NCBI GenBank assembly: GCA_037441845.1
Contig: JBBIRK010000006.1
Coordinates: 148,880 to 212,879 of the forward strand
Length of the DNA stretch: 64,000 nt
Direction of reading: 5' to 3'
Source of the DNA: Candidatus Zixiibacteriota bacterium
Lineage (GTDB): Bacteria; Zixibacteria; MSB-5A5; UBA10806; 4484-95
A model generated the notes under the pieces. It was not told the DNA's origin. It made no database searches and saw only the letters and a program-made list of their open reading frames with translations. A program made the translations under genes and the position numbers. Within the stretch, counting starts at the first letter, position 1, and every line of letters starts with the position of its first letter. This document shows positions 13,485 to 38,389 of the stretch, in pieces.

Positions 13485-14684
13485 TCAGGTTTCGGCGTTC
13501 GACTTGAGCTTGAGCAGTTTCTGCGTATATTTCTTGATCGCTTCTTCGAGCTCGATTCGCGAATGCTCCGGCAATCCGGAAATGATCGGCGACAGCTCGC
13601 TGTTCATCAGCTCATCCGCTTGCCGGGCCAGGCCGTTATAAGCCGGTTCGAGACGCGCGTGATCATACCAGTAGATAAACTCGTCCAATCTCCTTTCTAT
13701 TATCTCCTCGGCTTTGATCACCGCCTGCTGCTTTGCCTGGTTGGCCGCTTTGATAGATTCTCTCACGTCGTCGAGATCGAGCACTTCGACCTGCCGCGCA
13801 TAATTTTTGGGAACGTCTATATCGCGCGGCACGGCCATGTCCAACATGATCAGCTTCCTGCCGCCGCGGGATGATATTAATCGGTCTATCATTTTTTTAT
13901 TTATCAACGGCTCTCTCGCAGAGGTGCAGCTGATAACCACATCCGCTTGGCGAATCAGGTTTTCGAGCTCTTCCAGCGGATATCCGGTTCCCTGGTATCG
14001 CCCGGCGAGTTCTTCAGCTTTTGATTTGGTTCGATTGACGAAGCTGAGCTTGGAATAACCCAGACGGTTCAACGCGGAGGCCGCCAGCGCTATCATCTGA
14101 TTGACGCCGATCAGTACGATCACCGGATTCTCCAATTCTGCAAGCCTGCTTTTCAGCAACTCGATCGAGGCGCTGCTGACCGAACAGGCTCCCCGTCCAA
14201 GTTCCGTATCCGTACGTGTCTGTTTGCCGACACGAAAGGCCTGATGAAAAAGTCGGTGCAGTATTTTCCCCGCGGCTTTGACGTTGCAGGCCGAGGTGTA
14301 CGCCTCGCGGACCTGTCCCTGTATATGATTTTCTCCCAGCACCATCGAATCGACTCCGGCGGCGACCCGGAAGAGGTGATCAGCCGCATGCCGATCCTTT
14401 TTTATATAAAAATGCTCTTTCCACCTGTCGATTGAAACGGCGGAAAAATCGGCATAGAAATGCTCGATAATCGAGAATGGATTTTGTCTGTTTTCGGTTA
14501 CCAGATAAAATTCAATCCTGTTGCAGGTGGCCACGATCGCCGATTCCAAAACGCCGTCCTGCCTGCTTAATATCATATTCGCTTTGGCCAGTTCCTCCCG
14601 CGTTATTTGGAGTGGTTGGCGGATCTCCACGCTACCGGTGCGGTGATTTATTCCGCATACTATCAAGCTGACTCTACCGGACAT
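13485..14684 (-). CDS. hemA: Glutamyl-tRNA reductase.
   Basis: VCGINHRTGSVEIRQ, ATCNRIEFY, and the NADP-binding VLIGVNQMIALAASAL. Confidence 0.85.
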   Translation of the reverse strand: MSGRVSLIVCGINHRTGSVEIRQPLQITREELAKANMILSRQDGVLESAIVATCNRIEFYLVTENRQNPFSIIEHFYADFSAVSIDRWKEHFYIKKDRHAADHLFRVAAGVDSMVLGENHIQGQVREAYTSACNVKAAGKILHRLFHQAFRVGKQTRTDTELGRGACSVSSASIELLKSRLAELENPVIVLIGVNQMIALAASALNRLGYSKLSFVNRTKSKAEELAGRYQGTGYPLEELENLIRQADVVISCTSAREPLINKKMIDRLISSRGGRKLIMLDMAVPRDIDVPKNYARQVEVLDLDDVRESIKAANQAKQQAVIKAEEIIERRLDEFIYWYDHARLEPAYNGLARQADELMNSELSPIISGLPEHSRIELEEAIKKYTQKLLKLKSNAET

Positions 14685-14714: not shown

Positions 14715-16403
14715 TCAATCTAATGCCGCTTGGACTCCGCCGCCAATGATTTTCAGACTGCTGAATCCTTTTTCCCGAAGAATATGGACAGCTTGGTAGG
14801 CTCTCGAACCGCGCTTGCATATAATCGAAATCGGGGTGGATCGATCGAACTTGAGCTCGGCGTTTTTCAACTGGCTTAACGGTAAACGGATAATTTCCCG
14901 ATTTTGCCGTTCGGGAATAGGCTGACCGGAACTTTCCGATTTTTCCCGCACGTCCAGCAGCACTATCGCCGAATCGGCCTCCAGATCTCCGGGATCGGCG
15001 ATCGAAATTCCGCGGTTTCTTGATAGCGCCAACGTCGCCAATTGATACAGCGGATCGAGCGCCTCGGCGAATGGCGGGGCATAGGCATGTTCGAAAGCCA
15101 ATAGATCATGGATTGTCGAATATTTACGAAGCAGTGCCGAAAATACGTCGAGACGGCGGCATATATCTCCGTTGCCGGCCGCCTGCAACCCCAGCAGTCT
15201 GCCCTCGGTTTTGCCGAAGATCATCTTGAGAACGAAACTCTTTTTCTCCGGATAATAATCCGGTCTATCGACGAACGAGCCCCAAACACAATCCGGATTC
15301 AATCCGGCCGCGGCCGCCTTTTTGAAACTTACACCGACCGCACCGGCATTCAAATCGAATATCTTCACAATCATATTGCCCAATACCGGCGGATTTTCGG
15401 CATTTCCACCGGCAAAATTTTCCGCGATAATCCAGCCATGCTTATTGGCAAGCGAACCCATCGGCAAATAACATGGTTCGCCGGTTATCAGGTGCACGGA
15501 CTCGATGCAGTCGCCGCCGGCGTAGATATCGGGATCCGACGTGGCCAATCGGCTGTCCACCTTTATCGCCCCCGACTTTCCGAGAGTCAACCCGGCTTGG
15601 GTAGCAAGTGCCGTATTCGGCTGAACCCCAAGCGCCAGAAAAAGATAATCGGCTGAGATTTCGTCTCCGCCGGCAATTGAAACGGCCGGTCTTCCGTCCC
15701 TGTCGAAAACACTGCCGATATTCGCTCCCTTTACGACTCTCACCTTTTTCCGTTCGAGCTCGCGCTCGACAACGGCTGCCATCTCCGGATCGAACATCGC
15801 CGGCAGCAATTGATCGGCCTTTTCTATCAGCGTCGTTTGGATACCCCAAAGGCCTCCTACAGCCTCGGCCAACTCACAACCGATAAGACCGCCGCCTATT
15901 ATTATGGCCGATTCTATTTTCCCGGATTCGGCCTTAGCTCGAAATTTTATCGCATCTTCCGGTCTGGTGAAATACGAAATCGTCTCCACATCAGGGACCG
16001 GAAAGGGGGAAGGTATCGGCACGCCGCCGGTGGCCAAAACAAGTTTACCATAGCGATGACAAGTCGGTTTATCTTGATTTTTCGAACGCAGGGTTACCGT
16101 TTTCGCGGTCCGATCGATAGCGGTCACTTCGGTATCGGTATAAACATCGAACCCTTTGACGTCTCTGAAAAACGCCGTATCTCTTTCCACTCCATACGGA
16201 GTCATCTGCAGTTCTTTGAATGTTCCTACATCGCCCGAGGCGAAATAGGGCAGGCCGCACGAGGCGAACGATATGTAGTCGGATTTTTCGAAAAGAGTGA
16301 TCTTTGCTTTGGGCAAACGTCTGGCCAGCGCCGAGGCGGTTTTCATTCCTGCTGCTGCTCCACCGACAATTACGAAATCCGAGTACTGATTATCAATAAG
16401 CAT
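14715..16403 (-). CDS. CoA-disulfide reductase-family flavoprotein with a C-terminal rhodanese domain (NAD(P)H-dependent persulfide/polysulfide reductase-like).
   Basis: FAD motif VIVGGAAAGMKTA and redox Cys SFASCGLPY, as in CoADR. The C-terminal rhodanese active-site loop is CKRGSRAY. The start was moved to the ATG at 16403, which is preceded by GAAGGAGG 7 nt upstream; the track ORF starts at 16448. Confidence 0.75.
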   Translation of the reverse strand: MLIDNQYSDFVIVGGAAAGMKTASALARRLPKAKITLFEKSDYISFASCGLPYFASGDVGTFKELQMTPYGVERDTAFFRDVKGFDVYTDTEVTAIDRTAKTVTLRSKNQDKPTCHRYGKLVLATGGVPIPSPFPVPDVETISYFTRPEDAIKFRAKAESGKIESAIIIGGGLIGCELAEAVGGLWGIQTTLIEKADQLLPAMFDPEMAAVVERELERKKVRVVKGANIGSVFDRDGRPAVSIAGGDEISADYLFLALGVQPNTALATQAGLTLGKSGAIKVDSRLATSDPDIYAGGDCIESVHLITGEPCYLPMGSLANKHGWIIAENFAGGNAENPPVLGNMIVKIFDLNAGAVGVSFKKAAAAGLNPDCVWGSFVDRPDYYPEKKSFVLKMIFGKTEGRLLGLQAAGNGDICRRLDVFSALLRKYSTIHDLLAFEHAYAPPFAEALDPLYQLATLALSRNRGISIADPGDLEADSAIVLLDVREKSESSGQPIPERQNREIIRLPLSQLKNAELKFDRSTPISIICKRGSRAYQAVHILREKGFSSLKIIGGGVQAALD

Positions 16404-16437
16404 CACCGCGTCCTCCTTCAAACGACCTCCGGCCGGC

Positions 16438-16470
16438 AATAAACGCAAAAGGGTCCGGCATGCCAGACCC
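16438..16470 (-). terminator. Stem-loop (GGGTCcGGCATGCCaGACCC) followed on the - strand by a T-rich tract (TTTTGCGTTTATT). Putative terminator or attenuator between dsrP and the CoADR-rhodanese gene.
   Basis: Inverted repeat at 16451-16470. The complement of AATAAACGCAAAA (16438-16450) supplies the U-tract for a - strand transcript. It lies in a 126-nt gap after the dsrP stop. Confidence 0.35.
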
Positions 16471-16529
16471 TCCTGTTTTATTCCGCTTGTTTCCTCTGGC
16501 GGATCACCGGAATGACCTCGCTGTCATCT

Positions 16530-17687
16530 TCAAGCCATCGCCTCTTCCTTATACGACAGAGCTATTTTGTAGAAGATAGTAACCAAGAAGAAGCCGATCG
16601 CATAGACGCCCAACGATATCAGCAATTCCGGAATAGTGGGGGAATATTCCGTCACATGTCCGATAGGCGAGGGCACGAATCCGGCTACCACCATCCCCAG
16701 CCCTTTGTCGATCCAAATGGAGCCGAAAACCATCAAACACGCCGCAATCAGCAGCCCGTTCACACGCCGCAATTTCGGCACTATCAATATCACCAGCGAC
16801 AGCACCGCCAGAAACACCGAGGTCCACATCCATGGCACCAACCGCGATTTCCCCTCGAGGCCGAAATACAGATACCGGAAATGCTCCAGATGTTCCGGAA
16901 TATTGCTGTAAAACGCGGTGAAAATCTCCATTAGGATAAAGAATACATTGATACACATGGCATAAGTTACAATCTGCGTCAGCTTGCCTATCGCCTCCTG
17001 CCCGGCGTCGAATTTGGTTAGCTTACGGATAATAAAACACATCAGTATCAACAGGGCCGGCCCCGAGGCAAAAGCGGAGGCGAGAAAACGCGGGGCCAAT
17101 ATCGCGGTCAACCAAAACGGTCGAGCGGCCAAGCCCGAATACAGGAAAGCGGTAACCGTATGGATACTTATCGCCCACGGAATGGACAAAATTATTATCG
17201 GTTTTATCCAGCCCGGAGGGGCGATCGCCTTGCGCTCGGCGTTTAATGTCACTCTGCTGATTATCACGTTCAATAATAGGTAGCCGCCCAGGGCTATCGA
17301 ATCCCAGAACATCAACGAATGGGGCGTCGGATACAACATGACGTTGGGAACGCGGGTCGGCTGTCCCATATCGACGAAAATGAACAACATGCACATCATC
17401 ACCGCGGCGATAGCCAAAAATTCGCCCAGAATAGTTATTTTCCCGAACGCCTTGTAATTATGCAGATAATAGGGCAATACCACCATCACCGCCGAGGCGG
17501 CCACACCGACCAAGAAAGTGAATTGCGCGATATAAAATCCCCAGGTGACGTCGCGGCTCAATCCGGTGATACCCAGGCCGTAGGCAAGCTGTTTCAAATA
17601 AAACAAGAAGCCGATGAAAATCACAATTCCCAGCAACGTTATCCACAGCCAATATCTTCGATCTCCGATTAGCGCTCTTTCCAGCAT
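16530..17687 (-). CDS. dsrP: DsrP, NrfD/PsrC-family integral membrane quinone-interacting subunit of the DsrMKJOP complex.
   Basis: 385-aa polytopic membrane protein (about 10 TM helices). It is the last gene of the dsrMKJOP array. Confidence 0.8.
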   Translation of the reverse strand: MLERALIGDRRYWLWITLLGIVIFIGFLFYLKQLAYGLGITGLSRDVTWGFYIAQFTFLVGVAASAVMVVLPYYLHNYKAFGKITILGEFLAIAAVMMCMLFIFVDMGQPTRVPNVMLYPTPHSLMFWDSIALGGYLLLNVIISRVTLNAERKAIAPPGWIKPIIILSIPWAISIHTVTAFLYSGLAARPFWLTAILAPRFLASAFASGPALLILMCFIIRKLTKFDAGQEAIGKLTQIVTYAMCINVFFILMEIFTAFYSNIPEHLEHFRYLYFGLEGKSRLVPWMWTSVFLAVLSLVILIVPKLRRVNGLLIAACLMVFGSIWIDKGLGMVVAGFVPSPIGHVTEYSPTIPELLISLGVYAIGFFLVTIFYKIALSYKEEAMA

Positions 17688-17694
17688 ATTTACC

Positions 17695-18477
17695 TCAAAC
17701 TATGTAATAGATTTGCGGTTTGGTGCCGAGTCCGGCCTTGCGGCGGATAGTGAAATTTTCGCTGAGGATCCGCCTTACCTCCGAATCCGGATTTTCCAGG
17801 TCGCCGAAATGCAGCGCCTTATGTTTGCAGGCTTCGACACAGGCGGGAAGCAATCCCTTGGCCAGCCGCTCCTCGCAGAAAGTGCACTTTTCGACCACGC
17901 CGCGGCTGCGCGTCGGAAATTCCGGGCGCAGTTCTTTTATGAAAGGACGGGGATCGCGCCAGTTGAAACTGCGCGAACCGTAAGGACAGGCGGCCACGCA
18001 ATAGCGGCAGCCGATACACCTGTGCCAATCCATCATGACGATTCCGTCTTTGCGGCGCCAGGTAGCCTTCGTCGGGCAGACTCCCACGCAGGGGGGATTG
18101 TCGCAATGGTTGCAAAGCACCAATACCGGCTTTTCGAGCACCTCATGAACCAAATGCTCATGTTCTAAATCCGGAAACGCCCCCTCGAATTTTTCTTTCC
18201 ATATCCATTTGATTTCGTCTTTCGGATTATCGAACCGGGGCACATTATGGGTCAGATGACAGGCCTCGATACAATCGCGGCAATTATCAACCTCACGGCA
18301 TTTCCGAAAATCGACCACCATAGCCCAGCGGGCGGCGGTCAGCGGACCGCTGGTTTGCGGCGGATTGACGATCAGCGAATCCTCGCCGGCTATAGCCCGC
18401 AAAGGGAAATTGATTGCGCAGCCGAACGCCGCCGCTGAACCGGCCAAACGCAAAAATTCCCGCCTATTTACTGACAT
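17695..18477 (-). CDS. dsrO: DsrO, periplasmic ferredoxin-like 4Fe-4S protein with a Tat signal.
   Basis: The twin-arginine signal is MSVNRREFLRLAGSAAAFGCA. There are multiple Cys clusters (CRDCIEACH, CNHCDNPPCVGVCP, CIGCRYCVAACPYG, CTFCEERLAKGLLPACVEAC). Confidence 0.85.
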   Translation of the reverse strand: MSVNRREFLRLAGSAAAFGCAINFPLRAIAGEDSLIVNPPQTSGPLTAARWAMVVDFRKCREVDNCRDCIEACHLTHNVPRFDNPKDEIKWIWKEKFEGAFPDLEHEHLVHEVLEKPVLVLCNHCDNPPCVGVCPTKATWRRKDGIVMMDWHRCIGCRYCVAACPYGSRSFNWRDPRPFIKELRPEFPTRSRGVVEKCTFCEERLAKGLLPACVEACKHKALHFGDLENPDSEVRRILSENFTIRRKAGLGTKPQIYYIV

Positions 18478-18862
18478 TGCGCACCTCCTGCGGTTCCAGA
18501 TGGCAGTCCCAGCAATAAGGGCTGACGCCCACGAAGGTATGGCATTTGTCGCAAAAATCGGATTTGTTGGAATGGCAGTTCATACAAGTATTGGTCAGGC
18601 TCATTTCGATCTCTTTTCCCGTAAATGTCGTGTAAGTCCTGATTCCCCGACGAACTACCGAGTCGCGCCACTGATTGAGGAAATCCATGTGTGCGGCAGT
18701 CATATAATCTGTCGGAGCCACACATTGTTTTTCCGCTGTCACCAATTTCGGTTCCGGACGATAATCCGCTTGGCCGCTTATTAGAGCGTTATACCAGAAC
18801 GGCACCGTGATTATCGCCAGAAATATGATCAGTCCCGTCAAAATTTTACCAGCATCGTACAT
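18464..18862 (-). CDS. dsrJ: DsrJ, small trihaem cytochrome c.
   Basis: There are three CXXCH motifs (CMNCH, CDKCH, CWDCH), an N-terminal signal anchor, and the conserved extra Cys (EKQCVAP). The protein is 132 aa. Confidence 0.85.
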   Translation of the reverse strand: MYDAGKILTGLIIFLAIITVPFWYNALISGQADYRPEPKLVTAEKQCVAPTDYMTAAHMDFLNQWRDSVVRRGIRTYTTFTGKEIEMSLTNTCMNCHSNKSDFCDKCHTFVGVSPYCWDCHLEPQEVRNVSK

Positions 18863-18864
18863 AA

Positions 18865-20475
18865 TTACCGTTCCTCCCCCGGTGAAAACGGAGTTCCCCG
18901 CAGATCGACCTCCCGCTTTTTTTCGCCTTTCATTACCAACGCATTGCCGACCAGCTCATGCACGCCGGCAACCTCGACACCCGGCACCCAATATTCGAGC
19001 AGCGGCGGTAGCGTTGCTTTATCGATAGCGCAAATACAAGCCAGCAGATTGACGCCGTGCTTTTCACTGACGAACTTCACAGCGTTGGCTCGCGGCAAGC
19101 CTCCCCGAAGCCGCATTTCGAGATTTTCGTCGGTGCCCAATCCCGATCCGGAACCGCAGCAGAAAGTTTGCTCTCTGATAGTGTTTTCCGGCATCTCGTG
19201 GAAACGATTGCAGACGTTTTTCAATATATACCGCGGTTCCTCGAGCAACCCCATCGCCCTTGAGGGATTGCACGAATCGTGAAATGTCACGTTCCAATGG
19301 TCGTTGCGGCTCGGATCAAGTTTCAACTTTCCGTGCTTAATCAGGTCGGCGGTGAATTCGCAAATATGCACCATCTTGGTCGATTTGGCGTTTTCGAATC
19401 TGGTTCCCGTAATCGGCGAAACCGGCGGCTCGAGAAAATCGGCCGGACCGTTTATGGTGTCCATATATTGGTGAAGCACCCGCCACATATGCCCGCATTC
19501 GCCTCCGATTATCCATTTCACTTTCAGGCGGCGCGCTTCGGCGTAGATTTTGTTGTTCAGCCTTTTCATCATCTCGGCTGAATGGAACAGGCCGAAATTG
19601 CCCCCTTCGGAGGCATAAGCGCTGAAAGTATAGCTCAATCCGATTTCGTGGAACAGCGCCAGATAACCCAAGAGCGTGTAATAATGAGGCGTGCCGAAAT
19701 AATCCGCCGACGGCACCACGAATAAGATGTCTTTACCTTTCTCGTTGATCGGAGCGTTCACTCGTATTCCGGTCAATTCCTCAAGTTCGTCGACCGCGAA
19801 TTCGATACTGTCTTTGAATCCGTGGGGTTGAATTCCGAGATGATTGCCGGTGCGGAAACAATTGGCCGCCGGAGTGGTAATCCAGTCGATCCCGCAGCCG
19901 ATCAGATTCAACAGCTCGCGCACCATCATCGTAATTTCCGCCGTGTCTATTCCATAAGGGCAAAAAACCGAGCAGCGGCGGCACTCGGTGCATTGATAGA
20001 AATAATAGAACCACTCCTTCACGACTTGCTCGGTCAATTCTCTGGCGCCGGCCATCCTGCCCATTATCTTGCCCGCCAAAGTGAAATCGTTGCGATAAAC
20101 CGAACGGAGCAGCTCGGCGCGCAAGACCGGCATGTTTTTGGGATCGCCCGAACCGATGAAAAAATGACACTTGTCGGCGCAAGCTCCGCAGCGCACGCAT
20201 ATATCCATAAAAATTTTCAACGAACGGTATCGGTTCAGACGTTCTCGCAGCCCGTTCAAAATGATTTCTTTCCAATTTTCCGGCAACTTCCAGTCGGCGT
20301 CGGTCGGTTGCCATTTGCGGACATGGGGCAAGCCGAGATATTCAGCGCGCTCGGGAACCGCCGCATAATTGTATGTTCCGTGGCGGAATTCGACCGCCGG
20401 ATCCATCCAGCTTTTTTTCGGAGGATTATAATCTATGCGCCCGAGCTCTTCGGGTTTAGGTGTCTTTTCAGCCAT
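18865..20475 (-). CDS. dsrK: DsrK, HdrD-like catalytic subunit (4Fe-4S plus CCG domains).
   Basis: Motifs: CVRCGACADKCH, CTECRRCSVFCPYG, HDSCNPSRAMG, TFCCGSGSGLG. The start was moved to the ATG at 20475 (MAEKTPKPEELG). That ATG overlaps the dsrM TGA stop as ATGA. Confidence 0.85.
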   Translation of the reverse strand: MAEKTPKPEELGRIDYNPPKKSWMDPAVEFRHGTYNYAAVPERAEYLGLPHVRKWQPTDADWKLPENWKEIILNGLRERLNRYRSLKIFMDICVRCGACADKCHFFIGSGDPKNMPVLRAELLRSVYRNDFTLAGKIMGRMAGARELTEQVVKEWFYYFYQCTECRRCSVFCPYGIDTAEITMMVRELLNLIGCGIDWITTPAANCFRTGNHLGIQPHGFKDSIEFAVDELEELTGIRVNAPINEKGKDILFVVPSADYFGTPHYYTLLGYLALFHEIGLSYTFSAYASEGGNFGLFHSAEMMKRLNNKIYAEARRLKVKWIIGGECGHMWRVLHQYMDTINGPADFLEPPVSPITGTRFENAKSTKMVHICEFTADLIKHGKLKLDPSRNDHWNVTFHDSCNPSRAMGLLEEPRYILKNVCNRFHEMPENTIREQTFCCGSGSGLGTDENLEMRLRGGLPRANAVKFVSEKHGVNLLACICAIDKATLPPLLEYWVPGVEVAGVHELVGNALVMKGEKKREVDLRGTPFSPGEER

Positions 20476-21470
20476 CACTTGTCCTTTTCCATAGGCAATC
20501 CAGAGGCCTTGATCTTGTCGGCGAATTCTTCTTCCCACTCCTCGTAAGTGTGCACTTTAACCGGATAATCCCACGGATTGATATGCCGCCGGCTTCGGCT
20601 GTCATTGGGCATATTGCGCGTAGGGGATAAGAATACTCCGCCCATATGCATCAGTTTGCCATAAGGGAAATACGCCACCAATACACAAACCAAAAACAGG
20701 TGCAAGTAAAATAAAACTCCCAACCCGTCCGGCACGACCGGATTGAAACTGACAAGCCCCATCGCCAACTCTTTGACCGCCACGATATCGGTCTTGAAAA
20801 AATACCTCATCAACACTCCGGTCACCGCGATCGATCCGATCAGAAGCAAGGGAAAATAATCCGCGAAAAGGGAAAAATACCGCAGTTGAGCCGAAAACAA
20901 CCGCCGCAAAAACAAAAAAGTCAATGCCGCCAGCAGCGTGATATTAGTGATATATATAATCGGCACCCCGATCTGGAAAAAGCCGTCGATACTTTGCAAC
21001 AGTTTGACGAATCCCGGCACGGGCTCGGCGAAATAACGGTAATGACGCAGAAAGACGATTAAAAACGACCAATGAAAAACGAGTCCGCCCAACCATAACC
21101 ACTTGTTGGCGCTGTAGGTCAATTTCGGTCCCGTCCTCAATTCGGCTTTGGTGTTCCGAAACAGCGAACGGAACAGCAGCACTTCGAGCGCCATGCGGAC
21201 TATTACTCCCAACTTGGAACTCGGGTTGTCGATTTTATTCGATTTTATCCAGGGAAGGGAGGTCTGCTGGCCGCAAGTGGTTGTGATTTTGAACGGCACC
21301 GGCGATTTAGACCAGCCGATCACCCGATAGACCACACCGGCAAAAAACGCCGCAATCGCCGCATAAGGGATTACCACCCCGAACAGTGATTGCAATCGCA
21401 GCATTCCCGACCCGATCAAAGCAATCGCTATCAAACCACCGGCCGCCAGAAAAGATACGAAGGCATTCAT
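20475..21470 (-). CDS. dsrM: DsrM, NarI-family dihaem cytochrome b membrane subunit.
   Basis: 331 aa, 5-6 TM helices, C-terminal YFPYGKLMHMGGVF, and a position upstream of dsrK. Confidence 0.8.
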   Translation of the reverse strand: MNAFVSFLAAGGLIAIALIGSGMLRLQSLFGVVIPYAAIAAFFAGVVYRVIGWSKSPVPFKITTTCGQQTSLPWIKSNKIDNPSSKLGVIVRMALEVLLFRSLFRNTKAELRTGPKLTYSANKWLWLGGLVFHWSFLIVFLRHYRYFAEPVPGFVKLLQSIDGFFQIGVPIIYITNITLLAALTFLFLRRLFSAQLRYFSLFADYFPLLLIGSIAVTGVLMRYFFKTDIVAVKELAMGLVSFNPVVPDGLGVLFYLHLFLVCVLVAYFPYGKLMHMGGVFLSPTRNMPNDSRSRRHINPWDYPVKVHTYEEWEEEFADKIKASGLPMEKDK

Positions 21471-21518: not shown

Positions 21519-22037
21519 TTATACCTCGTCTTGAATATCGTTGCTTTCGAGAAGACACGCTCTATCGAGCAGTTTCTGATATCTGCGCTTGAATTCGTTT
21601 ATTTTAATCCGACCCAGCTGTTCCCGGCATTCCATGTAAATATCGAAACAATTCAGCGCGATTTCGTCGATCTTTTCGGATATGCGGGCATATTCCTTCC
21701 GGGTTTCGTGATCCTCCAGATCGACCGCAAGTTCCTCGCTTATTATTTTTTTCAATTGAAATATGAAACCGAGCGCCCGCGATGGATCGAAATCCTGCAC
21801 CGCCCTGATCTTGATCAGCTCGATCGGCAATTTCCCGTCGTGATCGCCGCTGTCCAACAACCGGTCGTAAATGCAGGCCAAGTTTTCTTTCATGGTGTGA
21901 CCGACCGGATTCAGAAATCGATCGCGTTGATTTTTAAGGTGCGCCCTGGCGCGCGGCTCATAAGTGGCCACGACACTGTCGGTCCATTTGTCGAGAATCC
22001 CTTCTCGGCGTTGCCGCAGCAGATTCAAAAGCGACAT
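21519..22037 (-). CDS. dsrT: DsrT-like protein (RsbRD-N-like domain protein commonly encoded between dsrC and dsrMKJOP).
   Basis: 172-aa soluble helical protein with no cofactor motifs. The call rests mainly on its position between dsrC and dsrM and on general similarity to DsrT/RsbRD_N proteins. It was not verified by alignment. Confidence 0.4.
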   Translation of the reverse strand: MSLLNLLRQRREGILDKWTDSVVATYEPRARAHLKNQRDRFLNPVGHTMKENLACIYDRLLDSGDHDGKLPIELIKIRAVQDFDPSRALGFIFQLKKIISEELAVDLEDHETRKEYARISEKIDEIALNCFDIYMECREQLGRIKINEFKRRYQKLLDRACLLESNDIQDEV

Positions 22038-22138: not shown

Positions 22139-22456
22139 TTAAACGCAGCCGGTCGGTTTCGCCAATCCGGCGACCTTGCAGGCTCCCTTGGCCGGTCCCG
22201 AGGGAAACAGCTCGTAGATCTCTTTCAGCGAAAATCCGGTTTCCTTGCAGAGCTTGCGGATCATCGGCGCGATACCGAATTTCTGATAATAATCGCGCAG
22301 ATAGTTGACTACCTTCCAGTGCTTTTCCGTCATTTCGGTTACGCCCTCGGCACCGGCGAGCGCTCTGGCTACATCCTCATTCCATTTATCCATTTCCTGG
22401 ATAAACCCGTCCTCATCAACCTCGATTCTCACGTTTCCTGCTTCGAAAATCGGCAT
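22139..22456 (-). CDS. dsrC: DsrC, with the conserved C-terminal swinging arm carrying both cysteines.
   Basis: 105 aa ending ...FPSGPAKGACKVAGLAKPTGCV. This is the GAC(K)...PTGCV DsrC signature. Confidence 0.9.
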   Translation of the reverse strand: MPIFEAGNVRIEVDEDGFIQEMDKWNEDVARALAGAEGVTEMTEKHWKVVNYLRDYYQKFGIAPMIRKLCKETGFSLKEIYELFPSGPAKGACKVAGLAKPTGCV

Positions 22457-22497: not shown

Positions 22498-24180
22498 CTA
22501 ATGCATCTCGATATATCCACAGGGACAATTCTCCGCGCATTTCTTGCAGCCGTTGCAAAACTCGAGTTTGAATTTATACTCCTGCCCCCGCACTAAAGGC
22601 TTAACGATCGCGTTGTCCTGGCATAGACTCCAGCAGGTTCCGCAATCGAAACAAAGGCCGCAGCTCATGCAACGCTTCGATTCTGCCACCGCCTCCTCGA
22701 ACGTCAACGTGCTGGTGATCTCGGCGTCGAGGCTTTTCAGCCTTTCTTCAACCGGAAGCTGTTTCGCTTTGACCGGGTGCGCCTCGGGGAAATAAGTATG
22801 AGCCATCTTGTCCAACGTTATCAAATCCAGCTTTTCCGGCACGCGGATCGGGTTATTCGAAATCAATTCGTCGATCGCCAGCGCCGCCATCCGCCCGTGA
22901 TAAATCGCGGTGATCACCAACCCCAGTTCGATATCGTCTCCGCCGGAATAAGTCCCAGCGTCCCTGGTCTGACCCTTTTCGTCAACCTTGATCCAATCTT
23001 TTCCATCTATCAATTTGTCCAACCCGGTGAAATCCGGCTCCTGGCTTATCGCCGCTATAAGAGTGGAAAATTTCAAGTCGAACGTGTCACCTTCGATTGG
23101 AACCGGCCGCCTTCTTCCCGATGAGTCAGGTTCACCCAATTGCATCCTCTGACATTTGGCGCCGACCGCTTTGCCGTTTTCCTGATAAATTTCTATCGGA
23201 GCCGCAAGATATTCGATAGCCACGCCCTCTTCCTCGGCGCCATCGATTTCCTCGCAGATCGCCGGCATCTCCGCTCTGGTGCGGCGGTATAAAATCGTGG
23301 CTTTGGCGCCCAATCTGCGGGCTACACGAGCGGCATCTATAGCGGTGTCACCGCCGCCGATCACCACCACATGATCTCCGACATCGAGCTTTTCGCCGGT
23401 GTTTATCCGGTGAAGAAACGCCGTTCCCGTAAAAACGTTGGGGGCATCTTCACCCTTAATCCGAAGTTTAATCCCTTGATGCGCTCCGATCCCCACGAAA
23501 ATCGCCTTGTAATCTTGTTTCAGCTTATCGTAGGCGATATCTTTGCCGACGATGGTGTTCGTTTTGAGTTCCACTCCCAGGTCGACTATCCGCTGTATTT
23601 CGGCGTCGAGAACATGCTGCGGCAGGCGATAGTCCGGTATCCCGTAGCGAAGCATACCGCCCGTCTTCGGAAACGCCTCGAATACCGTAACCGGATAACC
23701 GCGGCGGGCAAGCTGGTAAGCGCAAGACATACCGGCGGGGCCGGAACCGATTACCGCTATTTTCTCGGCCTTTTTCGTTTCGCTGATCAGTCTGGGCTTG
23801 AGGTTTTTGGATAATCCATAGTCGCCTATAAATCTCTCGATATTATTGATCCCGACCGCGCCTTCTTTATCCTTGCGATTACACTGGCTTTCGCATGGGT
23901 GTGGGCAAACCCGGCCGCATACCGAAGGGAACGGGGTCGTTTCGAGAAATATGTAGAACGCTTTCGCCAGGGTTTCATCGTAACTCTGACCGAAATCCTC
24001 GGTTCTCGAAATCGCCGTGATCATCTCCCGAATTCTGTTGTGATTCGGACAGGTATTTATGCATGGCGGCATCTTTTCCACCAGCTTGGGGCGCAATGGG
24101 GAGGTCTCTACGCTCGAGCCCCCCGACGATCGCGAAAGACTTCGCAAACCGGTTTTGGTTTTTTTGACTATTTTAGCCAT
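22498..24180 (-). CDS. dsrL: DsrL-like NAD(P)H:acceptor oxidoreductase. It is GltD-like with an extra C-terminal 2x[4Fe-4S] ferredoxin domain, probably the short DsrL-2 type.
   Basis: GltD-like N-terminal Cys cluster (CINTCPNH...CGRVCPHPCESQC). FAD site VIGSGPAGMSCAYQLARRG. NAD(P) site VVVIGGGDTAIDAARVARRLG. C-terminal ferredoxin CMSCGLCFDCGTCWSLCQ...CNGCKKCAENCPCG, which GltD, NfnB and SudA lack. It sits between dsrN and dsrC. Confidence 0.65.
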   Translation of the reverse strand: MAKIVKKTKTGLRSLSRSSGGSSVETSPLRPKLVEKMPPCINTCPNHNRIREMITAISRTEDFGQSYDETLAKAFYIFLETTPFPSVCGRVCPHPCESQCNRKDKEGAVGINNIERFIGDYGLSKNLKPRLISETKKAEKIAVIGSGPAGMSCAYQLARRGYPVTVFEAFPKTGGMLRYGIPDYRLPQHVLDAEIQRIVDLGVELKTNTIVGKDIAYDKLKQDYKAIFVGIGAHQGIKLRIKGEDAPNVFTGTAFLHRINTGEKLDVGDHVVVIGGGDTAIDAARVARRLGAKATILYRRTRAEMPAICEEIDGAEEEGVAIEYLAAPIEIYQENGKAVGAKCQRMQLGEPDSSGRRRPVPIEGDTFDLKFSTLIAAISQEPDFTGLDKLIDGKDWIKVDEKGQTRDAGTYSGGDDIELGLVITAIYHGRMAALAIDELISNNPIRVPEKLDLITLDKMAHTYFPEAHPVKAKQLPVEERLKSLDAEITSTLTFEEAVAESKRCMSCGLCFDCGTCWSLCQDNAIVKPLVRGQEYKFKLEFCNGCKKCAENCPCGYIEMH

Positions 24181-24195
24181 GATCGACTCTCTTTA

Positions 24196-25647
24196 TTATA
24201 ATGCTTTTTTTAACGCAGGTTTATTTTCACTGTTCAGGCGGTTCGCAGCAGCTGCCTTCTGCTTATATTCAATCGCCTTTTGCACGAATGCGGGCGCCCA
24301 CGATTTGACACCTTCGGCATGGATATGCAGATAACTTGCCATCGAGTTTTTGAAGACGATGCCGTCGCGTTTTCCCCCCAAGCCGGTTCCGATCTTCAGC
24401 CCCAGGCAGGTTGTATACTCATTATTCGAAAAATCCAGCGGATATGTATAATGAAATTCATGTCCCTTGATTATAGTGCCCCGCTCGTAATAAGGATTAT
24501 CTTTATCTACGACAGCCACCTCATAGCCGTGGCCGGCCGGTTTATCGCCGATACCGAGTCTTAAATTCAAAATCGAGGCCATCGGGTAACTCGCATGGTC
24601 CAATTCCAAGCTTTTTGATAGATAAATAAGGCCGCCGCATTCGGCGTAGATCGGCATGCCGCTTTCCGCCGCCTGTCGCACCGATTCCATCATGCTTTTA
24701 TTCGAGGCCAACCGCGCGGCGTGCGTTTCGGGGAATCCTCCCCCGATATAGAGGCCGTCCAGCTCCGGCAGACGGGGCTCGTCCAAAGGCGAAACCGCAA
24801 TGAGTTCGGCTCCAAAACGCCTTAAAGCCTCCAGATTTTCAGGATAATAAAAGGTGAAAGAAGAATCCGCGAAATAACCGATTCTTGCTTTTTTCGGAAT
24901 ATCTTCCGGAATTTCCGCGAAAACGTTGTGTTTGATCTCCATCGCCGGCGCCTGCGCAGCCACCTTGATCAATTCATCGATCTCTATGAATTCGCCGCCG
25001 ATTTGCATTGTTTTTTCTTCCAGTTTTTCCATCTTCCCGAATTCGTCCGGAGGTATCAGCCCGAGGTGCCGCTGAGGAATCAAATGATCGTGTTCGGTAA
25101 ATGACGGGATCGCTCCCAGAACGGGGATTCCGCAATACTTGGCTATCGATTCCTGGATTACCTTACGGTGTCTGGCGCCGGCCACTTTATTGAGGATAAC
25201 CCCTTTAATCTGCAGTTTTTTGTCGAAATCGAGACACCCTTTCAGCAGTGCGGCGATGGTTCTCGTGGTTTTGGCGGCATTGATCACCAGAACCACCGGC
25301 GACTGAATCAGTTTGGCCAGCTCGGCCGTGCTGTTTACCCCCGATTCATCTCTGCCGTCGAAAATTCCCCGGTTGCCCTCGACAACCGCGATATCGCAAT
25401 CGCTTGATCTCGAAACGAACGATCTCCATACCAATTCGGGTTCTGCCATGAAGGTGTCGAGGTTGTAGCAGCTTCGCCCGGCGATTTTACCCAGCCAGGC
25501 TGAATCGATATAATCCGGCCCCTTTTTGAATACCGCCGTCCTCAGGCCGCGGCGACGCAGAGCCGCCACGGCGCTGAGACAAACTATCGTCTTGCCGGAA
25601 TCGCCGGACAAACCGGCGATCACCAGCCGGGGCAATTCAAACCGCAT
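24196..25647 (-). CDS. dsrN: DsrN, cobyrinic acid a,c-diamide synthase homologue (sirohaem amidase).
   Basis: The CbiA/CobB N-terminal ATPase motif is VIAGLSGDSGKTIVCLSA. The C-terminal glutamine amidotransferase domain has an active-site Cys (YAECGGLIYL). It lies directly downstream of dsrABD. Confidence 0.8.
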   Translation of the reverse strand: MRFELPRLVIAGLSGDSGKTIVCLSAVAALRRRGLRTAVFKKGPDYIDSAWLGKIAGRSCYNLDTFMAEPELVWRSFVSRSSDCDIAVVEGNRGIFDGRDESGVNSTAELAKLIQSPVVLVINAAKTTRTIAALLKGCLDFDKKLQIKGVILNKVAGARHRKVIQESIAKYCGIPVLGAIPSFTEHDHLIPQRHLGLIPPDEFGKMEKLEEKTMQIGGEFIEIDELIKVAAQAPAMEIKHNVFAEIPEDIPKKARIGYFADSSFTFYYPENLEALRRFGAELIAVSPLDEPRLPELDGLYIGGGFPETHAARLASNKSMMESVRQAAESGMPIYAECGGLIYLSKSLELDHASYPMASILNLRLGIGDKPAGHGYEVAVVDKDNPYYERGTIIKGHEFHYTYPLDFSNNEYTTCLGLKIGTGLGGKRDGIVFKNSMASYLHIHAEGVKSWAPAFVQKAIEYKQKAAAANRLNSENKPALKKAL

Positions 25648-25675: not shown

Positions 25676-25921
25676 TTAATCGTTGGCCGCGCCTTCTTTA
25701 TGCGGCAATTCGATAAAACTGCCGCCGAAATAAGTGTAAACGCAGCGGCCGGAATTCATCAGCTCTTTAATGGCTTCTTTGCAGAGCTGTTTGTCGACCT
25801 CGTCGCCGTAGAGCTCGATCATGGCCTTGGTCAGATCGGTCGCTTTCAGCTTCTTTTGACCGGTCGATTCCTTGACCAATTTGTACATCGCATCGGCGAT
25901 TTCACTTACGGTTTTAGCCAC
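25676..25921 (-). CDS. dsrD: DsrD, small winged-helix protein of reductive dsr operons.
   Basis: 81 aa, Lys-rich. Its C-terminal ...SGRCVYTYFGGSFIELPHKEG resembles the DsrD ...EYWSSGSTTMYGLKG end. It is positioned immediately after dsrB. Confidence 0.7.
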   Translation of the reverse strand: MAKTVSEIADAMYKLVKESTGQKKLKATDLTKAMIELYGDEVDKQLCKEAIKELMNSGRCVYTYFGGSFIELPHKEGAAND

Positions 25922-25933
25922 TTAAATTACTCC

Positions 25934-27016
25934 TCAAAAGGTTAAATGCGTCGAACGCTTAAAGGTCAGGCCGGCATGCTTGAAATCATCGATATGCTCT
26001 TTGCGGAATTCTATTCCGGCCATCCTGAAAAAGCGCGGCCAGCCGATACGCTCGATCCATTCGCCCATGCGTTCGTATTTCTTGGCATTCTTGGCCCAGA
26101 GCTCGACGATGTTCTTGACTGCGCTGGTAACCTCGGGCCAACGCGGCGGATTGTTGGGCAAGAACGGTATCGCCAGCTTCGAAAACATCGGCTCATGTCT
26201 GGCATTGGACACTTTGCCGCCTACCCAGATAGATACGCCGTCGTTGAGCGGATCGTTCAATTTCATGGCCGGGCAGACGGTATAGCAGTTGGCGCAGAAC
26301 ATGCAGCGCTCTTCGATAACCTCAACCGATGGCTTGCCGTTCACCGTCGCCGGTCTGATCGCCGCCGTCGGGCAGGAGGCGCTGACATTGGGAATTTCGC
26401 AGATGTTTTTCAAATTGTCATGGTCTATTTTCGGCGGCCTGCGATGTATCCCGAGAATCGCGATATCCGAACAATGCACCGCGCCGCACATATTGAGGCA
26501 GCAGGCGAGCGCGATCCGTAGTTTGCCGGGCAGCTTCATGTTCTCGAAATAGTCGATCAATTCGTCCATCACCGATTTGACGATGCCCGAAGCGTCGGTG
26601 GCGGCCGAGTGGCAATGGATCCACCCCTGGGTGTGCACGATACTCGAAATCGAGTTCTGAATTCCGCCGACCGGATGGCCGAGCGCTTTTACTTCTTTGA
26701 TCAATGGCTCGATATTTTCCGGCTTGGTGAGCAGAAATTCCACGTTATGCCGGCTGGTGAAACGCAGATAGCCGTCGCAGTATTTATCCGCCAGATCGGC
26801 ATACATCCTGATTTTCTGAATGCTCAGCAACCGCGGCGACCCCACCCGAACTGAGTAAAGTTTATCGCCGCTTTCGGCCACATGGACCATCACCCCGGGT
26901 TTTATGACCTCATGATATCTCCATTTGCCGTAATTCTTCTTGATAATGGGCGGCAAAAATTTCTCGTAATGCGGCGGACCAATATCGGTTTTTCTTGCCT
27001 GTGCTGTTTCTGCCAT
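25934..27016 (-). CDS. dsrB: Dissimilatory sulfite reductase beta subunit.
   Basis: [18 protein letters not shown], sirohaem/FeS Cys clusters ([13 protein letters not shown]), and the ferredoxin insert CPTAAIRP...[12 protein letters not shown]. Confidence 0.9.
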
Positions 27017-27053: not shown

Positions 27054-28259
27054 TTACTTCTCTTCTTCGCTCTCGTCCTCTTCGAAATACTCCTCATAGA
27101 ACACATAGGGGTTTTCGCGTGGATGAGCGACCATTTCGGGGATCGGTTCCACCCCTATGGCCTCGAGGAAATTCCCCATACCGACGCGTTGGATGAATTC
27201 CCCGACACGCTCCCGGTTTTTCCCTTCCTCACTCCAGATCTCCCAGATTTTGGCCAGAAGTTCCTTGATCTCGGTGTAGGGCGGCTCGATCTTTATAAAG
27301 GGGACTATCACCGATGACAACAGCGCGCCTTCGATAATGGGTGCCTTGGAACCGAGCAACAGCGCCGCGCCTCTGTCTTTTCCCGGCCGAAGCGCTTTGG
27401 GCATGACATTTATGCAGTGCATGCAGCGGCGGCAGTAGCTGTTATCGATATGGAGCTCCTTGCCGTCCCAATCCATGCACTTGGCGGGGCAATTATCGAC
27501 CACTTCCGAGCGGATATCCATTCCTTTGGCGGCATATTCTTTAACCGCTTCCTTATCGACCTGAATGCTGTCGCGCCAAATCCCGATCACCGACAAATCG
27601 GCTCGGGCGATCGATGCCACGCAATCGTTCGGACAACCCGACATTTTAAGTTTGAACTTATAGGGAAACGCCGGCCGGTGAAGCTCATCCTGAAAAGCCA
27701 TCGTTAGGTCGTAAGTCAACGCCAGCGTGTCGTAACAAGCCCATTCGCAGCGGGCGGGACCGACACAGCAACTCGGCGTCCTTACATCTGACCCGGAGCC
27801 GCCCAAATCGAATCCGGCCTGAGTCAATTCGGAAAATATCGGTTCCAACTCGGCCGTCTGGGTGCCCAGGAAAATAATATCGCCGGTGGAGCCGTGCATG
27901 TTGGTCAATCCCGAGCCGTGTTTTTCCCATATATTGCAAAGCGTGCGCAGCGCCTCGGAGGTGTAAAACCAACCCGACGGCTGATTTATACGGATCGTAT
28001 GGAAATGTGAGATGTGGGGGAACTTATCCGGCAGATCGGAATAGCGGCCTATGACTCCGCCGCCGTATCCCATCACGCCCACGATCCCTCCGTGTTTCCA
28101 GTGCCCGATTCGCTCGTTGTATGATTGCTCGAGCTGGCCGAGAAGATCGGTCGCCATCGGGCTTTTCTGGGAGGCAAGCTTGATTTCCTTGACGAAACTC
28201 GGCCATCGGCCTTTCTCGAGTTCGTCAAGCTTGGGTGTCTTGTAATGATTATCGGCCAT
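27054..28259 (-). CDS. dsrA: Dissimilatory sulfite reductase alpha subunit.
   Basis: [21 protein letters not shown]-terminal signature. [17 protein letters not shown] sirohaem-[4Fe-4S] coupling Cys. Ferredoxin domain [10 protein letters not shown]...[12 protein letters not shown]. Acidic C-terminal tail. Confidence 0.9.
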
Positions 28260-37711: not shown

Positions 37712-38389
37712 CTATCTGACCCGCAATCCCGCTATTTTCACCGCACCTCTATGATAACCGTCGGGGAACAACCTTTCCATATCCGCCAAATCGATCTTAT
37801 TATCCTTACACGTTTCATAAATCGTCGGCACGGTTTTATTTTCGGCGTATTTCTGCCTTAAGTAGGTTATCACTTTCCAATGTTCCTTGGTGAGAGGGAC
37901 TTTCATCTCATAAGCGCGGTTGACCGCGAACACCTCGTCCCAATCTTTCGGGTTGACCAAAAATCCCCGGGAATCGATCCGATAAGTTTTGGAATCGTAT
38001 TCCGATTCGAAACGTTTGTAGTTTTCTTTCAGCCAGAAATGTTGAATATAGGCTTCCCGATAAGTGATGCCGGCCAGCCTGCAGGCTCCGCGCAAATAAC
38101 CGGTGGGAAATAATTGCTGCAGTTCCCCCAGACCGAGATTGTTTTTTTTGCAGGCGACATATACCAGCGGGCAGCTGTTCATCGTGGCGAATGAATTCCG
38201 GATAAAGTGGATCACTTTCCAATGGCTGTCCGTCAAACCGACCGTGATTTTAACCGCCGGCGCAAGGGCTCTGGCGAAATCCTCATCCCATTTGGAGGGG
38301 TCGATCAGATAACCTTGCGCATCGATCGGATACCTCTTCGACTTGAAATAAAGATATTTGGGTTTGGCCGATTTCTTTCGAACGCTCAT
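37712..38389 (-). CDS. Tandem DsrC/TusE-like fusion (two DsrC-family domains, both lacking the C-terminal catalytic Cys arm).
   Basis: Domain 1 reads ...WDEDFARALAPAV...HWKVIHFIRNSF...LFPTGYLRGACRLAGI. Domain 2 reads ...WDEVFAVNRAYEM...HWKVITYLRQKY...LFPDGYHRGAVKIAGLRVR. Compare the window's own DsrC, ...HWKVVNYLRDYY...LFPSGPAKGACKVAGLAKPTGCV. Confidence 0.65.
   Translation of the reverse strand: MSVRKKSAKPKYLYFKSKRYPIDAQGYLIDPSKWDEDFARALAPAVKITVGLTDSHWKVIHFIRNSFATMNSCPLVYVACKKNNLGLGELQQLFPTGYLRGACRLAGITYREAYIQHFWLKENYKRFESEYDSKTYRIDSRGFLVNPKDWDEVFAVNRAYEMKVPLTKEHWKVITYLRQKYAENKTVPTIYETCKDNKIDLADMERLFPDGYHRGAVKIAGLRVR

Follow-up and report, generated by a model that had tools for sequence, protein, structure and literature searches.

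A persulfide reductase-type gene repeatedly linked to dsr genes in Zixibacteria-like bacteria

Background

Several flavoproteins are known that join a core of the coenzyme A (CoA)-disulfide reductase type (CoADR) to a C-terminal rhodanese domain (RHD), and such enzymes reduce persulfides and polysulfides, not disulfides (PMC7969121). Here we describe a gene for a protein of this kind, called X below, in a 64,000-nucleotide (nt) stretch of DNA from a Candidatus Zixiibacteriota bacterium (GenBank assembly GCA_037441845.1, contig JBBIRK010000006.1, positions 148,880 to 212,879), to which we refer as the window. X lies between genes for dissimilatory sulfite reduction (dsr) and genes for haem and sirohaem synthesis.

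The closest characterised relative of X is the NADH-dependent persulfide reductase (Npsr) of Archaeoglobus fulgidus (AfNpsr, also annotated as NoxA-3; Protein Data Bank (PDB) entry 6PFZ), which has the same length and the same order of domains: flavin adenine dinucleotide (FAD)/NADH, dimerisation, rhodanese. Its host, too, reduces sulfate by way of Dsr, although it is archaeal and hyperthermophilic, and the presence of Npsr there was called a puzzle by the authors who characterised the enzyme (PMC7969121). Two features distinguish AfNpsr from the bacterial enzymes, namely a loop that covers CoA (residues 60-66) and Glu183, which hydrogen-bonds to the NADH ribose and repels the 2′-phosphate of NADPH. 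AfNpsr is inactive with NADPH and, unlike the bacterial enzymes, has NADH oxidase activity; in the bacterial Npsr and CoADR-RHD enzymes, this loop is missing from around CoA and the pocket is more open (PMC7969121).

The two-cysteine, CoA-assisted architecture of X is also that of the Shewanella loihica PV-4 Npsr (3NTA; Warner et al. 2011) and the Bacillus anthracis CoADR-RHD (3ICR; Wallen et al. 2009), both of which are about 30% identical to X with a template modelling (TM) score of about 0.87. The CoA-persulfide reductase of Enterococcus faecalis (EfCoAPR; PDB 8A56) is 34% identical to X and has the same fold (TM 0.86/0.90), but its alignment to X has deletions around residues 60-80, the region of the CoA-covering loop. 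Moreover, its gene belongs to the CstR-regulated sulfide-stress (cst) operon, whereas X lies in a respiratory sulfur cluster. For EfCoAPR, a mechanism with a swinging pantetheine arm has been proposed, and its rhodanese cysteine is persulfidated in vivo (PMC9405070). The flavoprotein core of X, without a rhodanese domain, occurs in an FAD-dependent oxidoreductase of the sulfate reducer Desulfovibrio vulgaris (3IWA), which shares the loop, and in pyrococcal CoADR/polysulfide reductases (4FX9; E 3.9e-66).

The full Dsr pathway, including DsrD and type 2 DsrL (DsrL-2), is already known from Zixibacteria (PMC10591310, PMC7596348, PMC6018805). In the literature searched, which included the synteny study of Neukirchen et al. 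(PMC10504309), the DsrL paper, the global dsrAB survey and the Npsr papers, neither the presence of Npsr-type genes in dsr clusters nor a linkage between the two was mentioned.

Family membership of X

X, a pyridine-nucleotide-disulfide oxidoreductase of 562 residues, is a member of the Npsr/CoADR-RHD family of single-cysteine enzymes, and all the features of sequence and structure that could be tested agree on this. Its closest match among PDB sequences is AfNpsr (6pfz; full-length, E 2.7e-113), to which it is 38.6% identical over 539 aligned positions. Full-length matches were also found to EfCoAPR (8a56; E 2.2e-85), S. loihica Npsr (3nta; E 1e-75) and B. anthracis CoADR-RHD (3icr; E 3.5e-74), and the D. 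vulgaris homologue lacking a rhodanese domain was matched with E 8e-91 (3iwa). An AlphaFold2 model of X, built on 20 homologues, has a mean predicted local distance difference test score of 86.9 and a predicted TM score of 0.85. The best Foldseek match of this model is again 6pfz (E 1.9e-60; TM 0.91/0.95; root-mean-square deviation 2.2 Å; 551 columns), and the superposition takes in the rhodanese domain. The next matches are other Npsr, CoAPR and CoADR-RHD structures (8a56, 3nt6, 3icr).

The residues expected to carry out catalysis are conserved in a family alignment of 88 sequences, 86 of which have the rhodanese domain. In the redox motif SFASCGLPY, which fits the family pattern S-x-x-x-C-G/A-L-P-Y next to the flavin, S45, C49 and G50 are invariant (88/88), and Cys49 aligns with Cys42 of both AfNpsr and EfCoAPR. 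The active-site loop of the rhodanese domain has six residues, C529-K-R-G-S-R534, and both C529 and R534 are kept in all 86 sequences that carry this domain. Cys529 aligns with Cys519 of AfNpsr and with the rhodanese active-site cysteine of EfCoAPR (Cys508 in the numbering of PMC9405070). Thus, the first-pass annotation, which had described a CoADR-type flavoprotein with its redox cysteine in SFASCGLPY, a C-terminal rhodanese domain with CKRGSRAY and the architecture of NADH-dependent persulfide/polysulfide reductases, agrees with Pfam, with the fold of the model and with the comparison to characterised Npsr and CoADR-RHD proteins that it had proposed. It had named the lack of a rhodanese fold or of a conserved active-site cysteine as evidence that would speak against it, and both are in fact present.

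The Rossmann motifs of X are VIVGGAAAG for FAD and IIGGGLIGCE for NADH, the latter followed by Glu194, and Pfam places Pyr_redox at residues 166-233 (E 1.9e-18). Glu194 is invariant (88/88) and aligns with Glu183 of AfNpsr, while the segment TPYGVER (residues 67-73) pairs without gaps with the CoA-covering loop of AfNpsr, TTYGAVR. The dimerisation domain of X, of a type that in this family lends residues to the active site of the partner subunit, contains DYYP and YAPP motifs, which are kept in the alignments to 6pfz and 8a56. We take their tyrosines to be the equivalents of Tyr361 and Tyr419 in Staphylococcus aureus CoADR. One cysteine is extra in comparison with AfNpsr: Cys176, within the NADH motif, is found in 48 of the 88 family sequences and is invariant in a second alignment, which holds 20 sequences (X and its closest relatives).

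Judged by the CoA-covering loop and the NADH-determining glutamate, X belongs to the AfNpsr subtype. Since it has both TPYGVER and Glu194, we predict that X is specific for NADH and prefers small sulfane-sulfur substrates. By analogy with the characterised enzymes, from which we infer the cofactor content, the substrate and the direction of the reaction, X is predicted to be homodimeric, FAD-containing, CoA-assisted and NADH-dependent, and would hold a tightly bound CoA as a Cys-S-S-CoA species.

Two other assignments were considered. X could be a CoA-disulfide reductase with the housekeeping task of maintaining the CoA thiol pool, its rhodanese domain being incidental: its top NCBIfam models, TIGR03385 and NF007123, are equivalogs of such reductases, and the structural homologue from B. 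anthracis is so named in PDB entry 3icr. However, the scores of X (328.5 and 294.2 bits) are far under the curated cut-offs (578.8 and 458, respectively), AfNpsr lacks CoA-disulfide activity (PMC7969121), X has the loop that restricts access to CoA, and the cysteine of the supposedly incidental rhodanese domain is invariant. This assignment is therefore improbable.

Even less probable is an NADH oxidase that protects an anaerobe against oxygen. In its favor, Nox and Npx are among the relatives within the family, and AfNpsr, which was annotated as NoxA-3, oxidises NADH in air. The oxidase activity of AfNpsr, however, is out-competed by persulfides and absent under anaerobic conditions (PMC7969121), and oxygen chemistry explains neither the conserved rhodanese cysteine nor the dsr context. 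X scores 197.9 bits with the model for H2O-forming NADH oxidases, NF046103, for which the cut-off is 600; with NF010037, a third model for CoA-disulfide reductases, it scores 183.4 bits, the cut-off being 394. Because all these scores are far below the NCBIfam curated cut-offs, X should be filed neither as a CoA-disulfide reductase nor as an NADH oxidase.

As a side observation, two loci have tandem CoADR-like genes (L119, 10004-13400; L130, 2204-5600), with 28-30% identity between the second of the two copies and X.

Recurrent linkage of X to dsr genes

While the X protein itself is a conventional member of a known enzyme family, its gene is linked to dsr genes repeatedly and in several arrangements, which goes beyond the ordinary. 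In a space of 5.8 billion proteins, we found one entry identical to X, one at 74% identity and many at ~50-55%; those that are named are all labelled Zixibacteria. The contigs of three of these relatives (74% and 55% identity) have the order dsrN-L-C-T-MKJOP, X, hemA-.... We then scanned genomes, one per GTDB species, and mapped the Dsr and Hem proteins of the window on 84 loci with tblastn (loci are given below with L numbers). At 50 loci the gene product is 44-74% identical to X, and nearly all of those with enough flanking sequence have dsrP directly 5′ and hemA or sirC 3′ of X. The order dsrP, X, hemA occurs at about 40 Zixibacteria-like loci in this range of identity, with a recurring hairpin between dsrP and X.

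Some loci deviate from this order. At L011, only 247 nt of upstream flank are available, which is too short to judge the neighborhood of dsrP and X. At L027, the usual place of dsrP, directly 5′ of X, is taken by a fragment of the C-terminal part of an IS21 IstB protein (457-762, minus strand). L004, a closed Zixibacteria genome (CP070766.1), has kept the dsrP-like gene, X and hemA, although no dsrM, dsrK, dsrJ or dsrO is found upstream. In this genome (5790-9903), the dsrP-like NrfD gene beside X and hemA is accompanied by short fragments (HypD, 102 residues; Sod_Fe_N, 38 residues), which suggests that the region is rearranged or decayed, or that the assembly is rich in frameshifts.

At least four other arrangements were found beyond this one. 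Among the 50 loci with 44-74% identity, L022 has the order dsrC, X, cobA, hemB. In five bins labelled Spirochaetes or Leptospirales (within L031-L044), X is followed by dsrT-dsrMKJOP; at L034, the sole locus of this type examined for it, an unrelated transporter gene of the major facilitator superfamily lies 5′ of X. Three more distant loci (L053, L073 and L075, the last being Omnitrophota SURF_12; 36-37% identity) have X followed by dsrL-dsrA-B-D-N-C-T-M-K. Finally, a Nitrospirota chromosome (L055; 36-37% identity) has dsrAB-dsrMK-dsrC, three further genes, X and cobA/hemD. In a neighbor-joining tree, the dsr-linked genes form at least three separate clades, and the group labelled Spirochaetes is nested inside the Zixibacteria clade.

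As a control, we sampled, with a different seed, 80 metagenome loci whose proteins are 33-39% identical to X. These loci had been drawn by a metagenome search with three proteins from the X-dsrL arrangement (clade D), and the matches are only 42-59% identical to those proteins, too distant to enlarge that clade. Only two of the 80 loci are linked to dsr or apr genes: L085, with sat-aprBA-qmoABC, X and then an HdrD-like gene, and L160, with dsrTMKJOP, a Tmc-like complex and then X. Given this low background, linkage to dsr genes is not a general property of the family, but is typical of the clade to which X belongs, and a few other clades have acquired it anew. Taken as an operational sign of an accessory gene of the dsr cluster, a conserved physical linkage that exceeds one lineage or one arrangement is present for X. 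The A. fulgidus gene for AfNpsr presumably does not adjoin dsr genes.

DsrK/HdrD-like proteins with CCG domains recur near X or dsrP in unrelated lineages (L160, 5484-8202; L085, 8483-13314; L055, 8146-9870; L034, 18635-20002). At L160, the CCG-domain protein belongs to a set resembling TmcBCA, and at L085 X comes after qmoABC.

A probable role in reducing zero-valent sulfur

We consider it probable, from the sequence and its context, that X is an NADH-dependent persulfide/polysulfide reductase that removes zero-valent sulfur arising around sulfite reduction or from the sulfide product. In the mechanism we propose, Cys529, on the surface of the rhodanese domain, would take sulfane sulfur from persulfides, polysulfides or a carrier protein. 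The pantetheine arm of the bound CoA would then swing and carry this sulfur, in the form of CoA-SSH, through a tunnel to the partner subunit and its Cys49, which lies at the flavin. NADH would reduce FAD, FAD would reduce the Cys49-S-S-CoA or persulfide species, and H2S would be released as the end product. In a Zixibacteria-like sulfate/sulfite reducer, with X directly behind dsrMKJOP and at the head of the hemA/sirohaem genes, the enzyme would spend NADH to convert zero-valent sulfur into H2S, whether this sulfur comes from the surroundings of DsrAB and DsrC or from product sulfide. Candidate forms of this sulfur are polysulfide, CoA persulfide and other thiol persulfides, and as an effect CoA and other thiols would stay free of persulfide. 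Every sequence element that this mechanism needs is conserved in X, as is the fold.

The first-pass annotation had proposed that X handles zero-valent sulfur or persulfides in connection with sulfite reduction. This proposal gains support from a dsr linkage that is conserved, was re-invented and contrasts with a background of 2/80, while the role itself we still infer. That the clade has been kept beside dsrMKJOP, dsrC, dsrL or dsrT in several lineages argues for an enzyme that cooperates with the Dsr pathway, as opposed to one for general stress. With the dsr linkage, the physiological function of Npsr-type enzymes in sulfate reducers can be framed as a concrete and testable question.

Several points weigh against the proposed role. 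The nearest characterised enzyme, AfNpsr, is only 38% identical to X and has itself been assigned no firm physiological role in A. fulgidus (PMC7969121), and sequence is a notoriously poor guide to substrate specificity in this family (PMC6026696). Many sulfate reducers have family members away from dsr genes, and at L046, which encodes a close relative of X (50% identity), no dsr gene lies closer than 10 kb. Within Zixibacteria, the synteny may largely reflect vertical inheritance, and the X-dsrT arrangement may not be an independent origin, because the clade labelled Spirochaetes is nested in Zixibacteria. Lastly, the dsrP-X hairpin could act as a genuine terminator, which would tie X to the tetrapyrrole genes and not to dsr expression.

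The window suggests that two pyridine nucleotides could be used in one cluster. DsrL of the window has the motif YRR (in ILYRRTRAEMP), which is associated with DsrL-2 and with NADPH specificity (Loffler et al., PMC7596348). Given this NADPH-type motif in DsrL and the NADH-type Glu194 in X, the dsr cluster may draw on NADPH via DsrL-2 and on NADH via X, and uncultured organisms of the Zixibacteria type may thus use both pyridine nucleotides in sulfur respiration.

A more specific function can be imagined, although it is a good deal less likely than the general reduction of zero-valent sulfur. X could be a dedicated accessory of the Dsr system with protein-bound sulfur as its substrate, where sulfane sulfur would pass between the rhodanese domain and DsrC (as trisulfide or persulfide) or a carrier of the TusA/DsrE type. 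We likewise regard it as doubtful, but worth stating, that X provides a soluble, NADH-linked route of H2S release parallel to the membrane complex DsrMKJOP, complementing the NADPH-specific DsrL-2. Near equilibrium, the same enzyme could instead load sulfur during sulfur disproportionation. If so, a Zixibacteria-type Npsr would be a previously unrecognised accessory of DsrL-2-containing Dsr systems, acting on zero-valent sulfur bound to DsrC or derived from DsrAB, a generalisation that we find rather unlikely.

What speaks for such an accessory is that X adjoins dsrC (L022), dsrL (L053, L073, L075) and dsrT (within L031-L044) in separate arrangements against a low background of linkage, that one cluster combines the NADPH motif of DsrL with the NADH-type glutamate of X, and that fusions of DsrE, Npsr and TusA have been reported elsewhere (PMC7887784). 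In addition, proteins of the DsrK/HdrD-like CCG type adjoin X in L055 and L085, and in L160 are two Tmc-like genes apart from it. On the other hand, protein substrates have not been demonstrated for any known Npsr, and the narrow CoA pocket of AfNpsr suggests small substrates (PMC7969121). A conserved hairpin parts X from dsrP, and most dsr-containing organisms are without the linkage, so that X cannot be a core component of the Dsr system. Were X such an accessory, a soluble branch coupled to pyridine nucleotides would exist beside DsrMKJOP, and might matter for sulfur disproportionation.

We also considered an NADH-dependent thiosulfate reductase, in which the sulfane sulfur would go to the rhodanese domain and the released sulfite to DsrAB. 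This candidate is unsupported, and the reaction is thermodynamically uphill with NADH under standard conditions; we left it as a sub-case.

Start, upstream hairpin and transcription of X

The X gene begins at ATG 16403 and ends with TGA at 14717-14715. A longer reading frame with a TTG start at 16448, given in the mechanical list of open reading frames (ORFs), was rejected: it overlaps the hairpin, and no homologue has a corresponding N-terminal extension. We prefer ATG 16403 because it has a strong ribosome-binding site, AAGGAGGA, and because the homologues at the syntenic loci start at the same place in the alignment, whereas the TTG reading runs through the hairpin.

The spacer between dsrP and X is 126 nt long. 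The first-pass annotation had placed X between the dsr and the haem/sirohaem genes with a hairpin after dsrP, and this can be read directly from the window, in which all of these elements are on the same strand. The stem of this terminator-like hairpin is followed by TTTTGCGTTT. A scan of the spacer gave no sigma-70-like site.

We surveyed this hairpin at 42 loci where dsrP and X are adjacent, with windows of the same length inside the X gene as controls. The spacer contains an uninterrupted stem of at least 7 base pairs (bp) at 38 of the 42 loci and of at least 9 bp at 32, while the controls average ~6.3 bp. From the end of the stem to the approximate start of X there are 0-16 nt at most loci, and 42 nt in the window. 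Because the hairpin thus usually leaves no room for a promoter, it would probably cause partial termination or stabilise a transcript end. Most likely, to judge from the sequence, X and the tetrapyrrole genes are transcribed by read-through from the dsr genes, at a level below that of dsr. With the hairpin in front and hemA 30 nt behind, X is transcriptionally the head of the tetrapyrrole genes and not a plain extension of dsrMKJOP.

Many of the spacer hairpins have a common stem, GGGGTTG...CAACCCC, although the remaining spacer sequence is not alignable. This stem occurs in L002, L004-L006, L010, L012, L013, L016-L018, L020, L029, L032, L035, L037, L040, L043 and others. It may be a form of terminator typical of the phylum or a recognised RNA element.

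The position of X before hemA raises the question of whether X itself serves sirohaem or haem synthesis as the head of the hemA operon. The spacing between X and hemA in relatives is -13 to 76 nt and is positive in all but one locus, cobA lies directly 3′ of X in L022 and L055, and X has stayed together with hem genes in L027 and L004, where dsrMKJO are missing upstream. However, the upstream break in L027 is the IS21 fragment, and X is linked to dsr without nearby hem genes in the X-dsrT and X-dsrL arrangements. Further, we know of no step in sirohaem or haem synthesis that needs a persulfide or disulfide reductase. The hem genes are probably at the dsr cluster because sirohaem is the cofactor of DsrAB, which also counts against such a function. 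We regard a function of X in tetrapyrrole synthesis as the least credible of the explanations considered, with hardly any probability.

Other features of the window

The features of X and its neighbors are listed in Table 1. The tetrapyrrole/sirohaem genes 3′ of X extend to position 8038 and comprise hemA, a precorrin-2-dehydrogenase-like gene, hemC, cobA/hemD, hemB and hemL. Beyond dsrA lie HdrA-family genes resembling QmoA and QmoB, on the same strand as X, and sat-aprBA on the opposite strand. With sat-aprBA, the Qmo-like genes and the dsr genes, the window therefore holds most of the pathway for dissimilatory sulfate reduction.

Table 1. Coordinates of X, its parts and the surrounding genes in the window
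Feature	Position	Strand	Basis and remarks
hemA (glutamyl-tRNA reductase)	13485..14684	-	Pfam GlutR_N, Shikimate_DH, GlutR_dimer; 30 nt 3′ of X stop
X, gene for 562-residue CoADR/Npsr-type flavoprotein with C-terminal rhodanese	14715..16403	-	ORF, translation, Pfam
X: rhodanese domain, residues 477-559	14727..14975	-	Pfam Rhodanese, 29.6 bits (gathering cut-off 22.2)
X: CKRGSRAY, residues 529-536	14796-14819	-	Cys529 codon 14817-14819
X: dimerisation domain, residues 346-450	15054..15368	-	Pyr_redox_dim, 34.7 bits (cut-off 25.3)
X: FAD and NAD(P)H Rossmann domains, residues 9-304	15492..16379	-	Pyr_redox_2, E 8.8e-55
X: CoA-covering loop TPYGVER, residues 67-73	16185..16205	-	alignment to 6pfz
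X: redox cysteine motif SFASCGLPY, residues 45-53	16245..16271	-	Cys49 codon 16257-16259
Shine-Dalgarno-like AAGGAGGA	16411-16418	-	read in sequence; 7 nt 5′ of X ATG
Terminator-like hairpin	16446..16475	-	terminator scan; 13 pairs, 7 G-C, then TTTTGCGTTT
dsrP (NrfD family), last gene of dsrMKJOP, directly 5′ of X	16530..17687	-	Pfam NrfD, E 8.8e-39; synteny
dsrO	17695-18477	-	Pfam, L001 synteny
dsrJ	18464-18862	-	Pfam, L001 synteny
dsrK	18865-20538	-	Pfam, L001 synteny
dsrM	20475-21470	-	Pfam, L001 synteny
dsrT	21519-22037	-	Pfam, L001 synteny
dsrC, C-terminus ...PTGCV	22139-22456	-	Pfam, translation
dsrL, type 2, YRR motif	22498-24180	-	Pfam, translation
dsrN	24196-25647	-	Pfam
dsrD	25676-25921	-	Pfam
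dsrB	25934-27016	-	Pfam
dsrA	27054-28259	-	Pfam

The mechanical ORF of dsrK has a GTG start, encodes 557 residues and shares 64 nt with dsrM. In L001, the called orthologue has 536 residues and begins where dsrM ends, and the true start of dsrK in the window is therefore probably ~20 codons downstream.

Separate from the canonical dsrC, the window encodes a tandem DsrC, a 225-residue protein with two DsrC-like stretches (37712-38389, minus strand; Pfam DsrC, E 5.7e-45). At 2086-3825 (minus strand), an Fe-S protein resembling HdrD and DsrK (Fer4_8 and CCG) is fused to a response-regulator receiver domain, and a PAS histidine kinase gene adjoins this fusion (637-2058, minus strand). Such a combination of a catalytic module of the heterodisulfide reductase type with two-component signalling is an unusual pairing.

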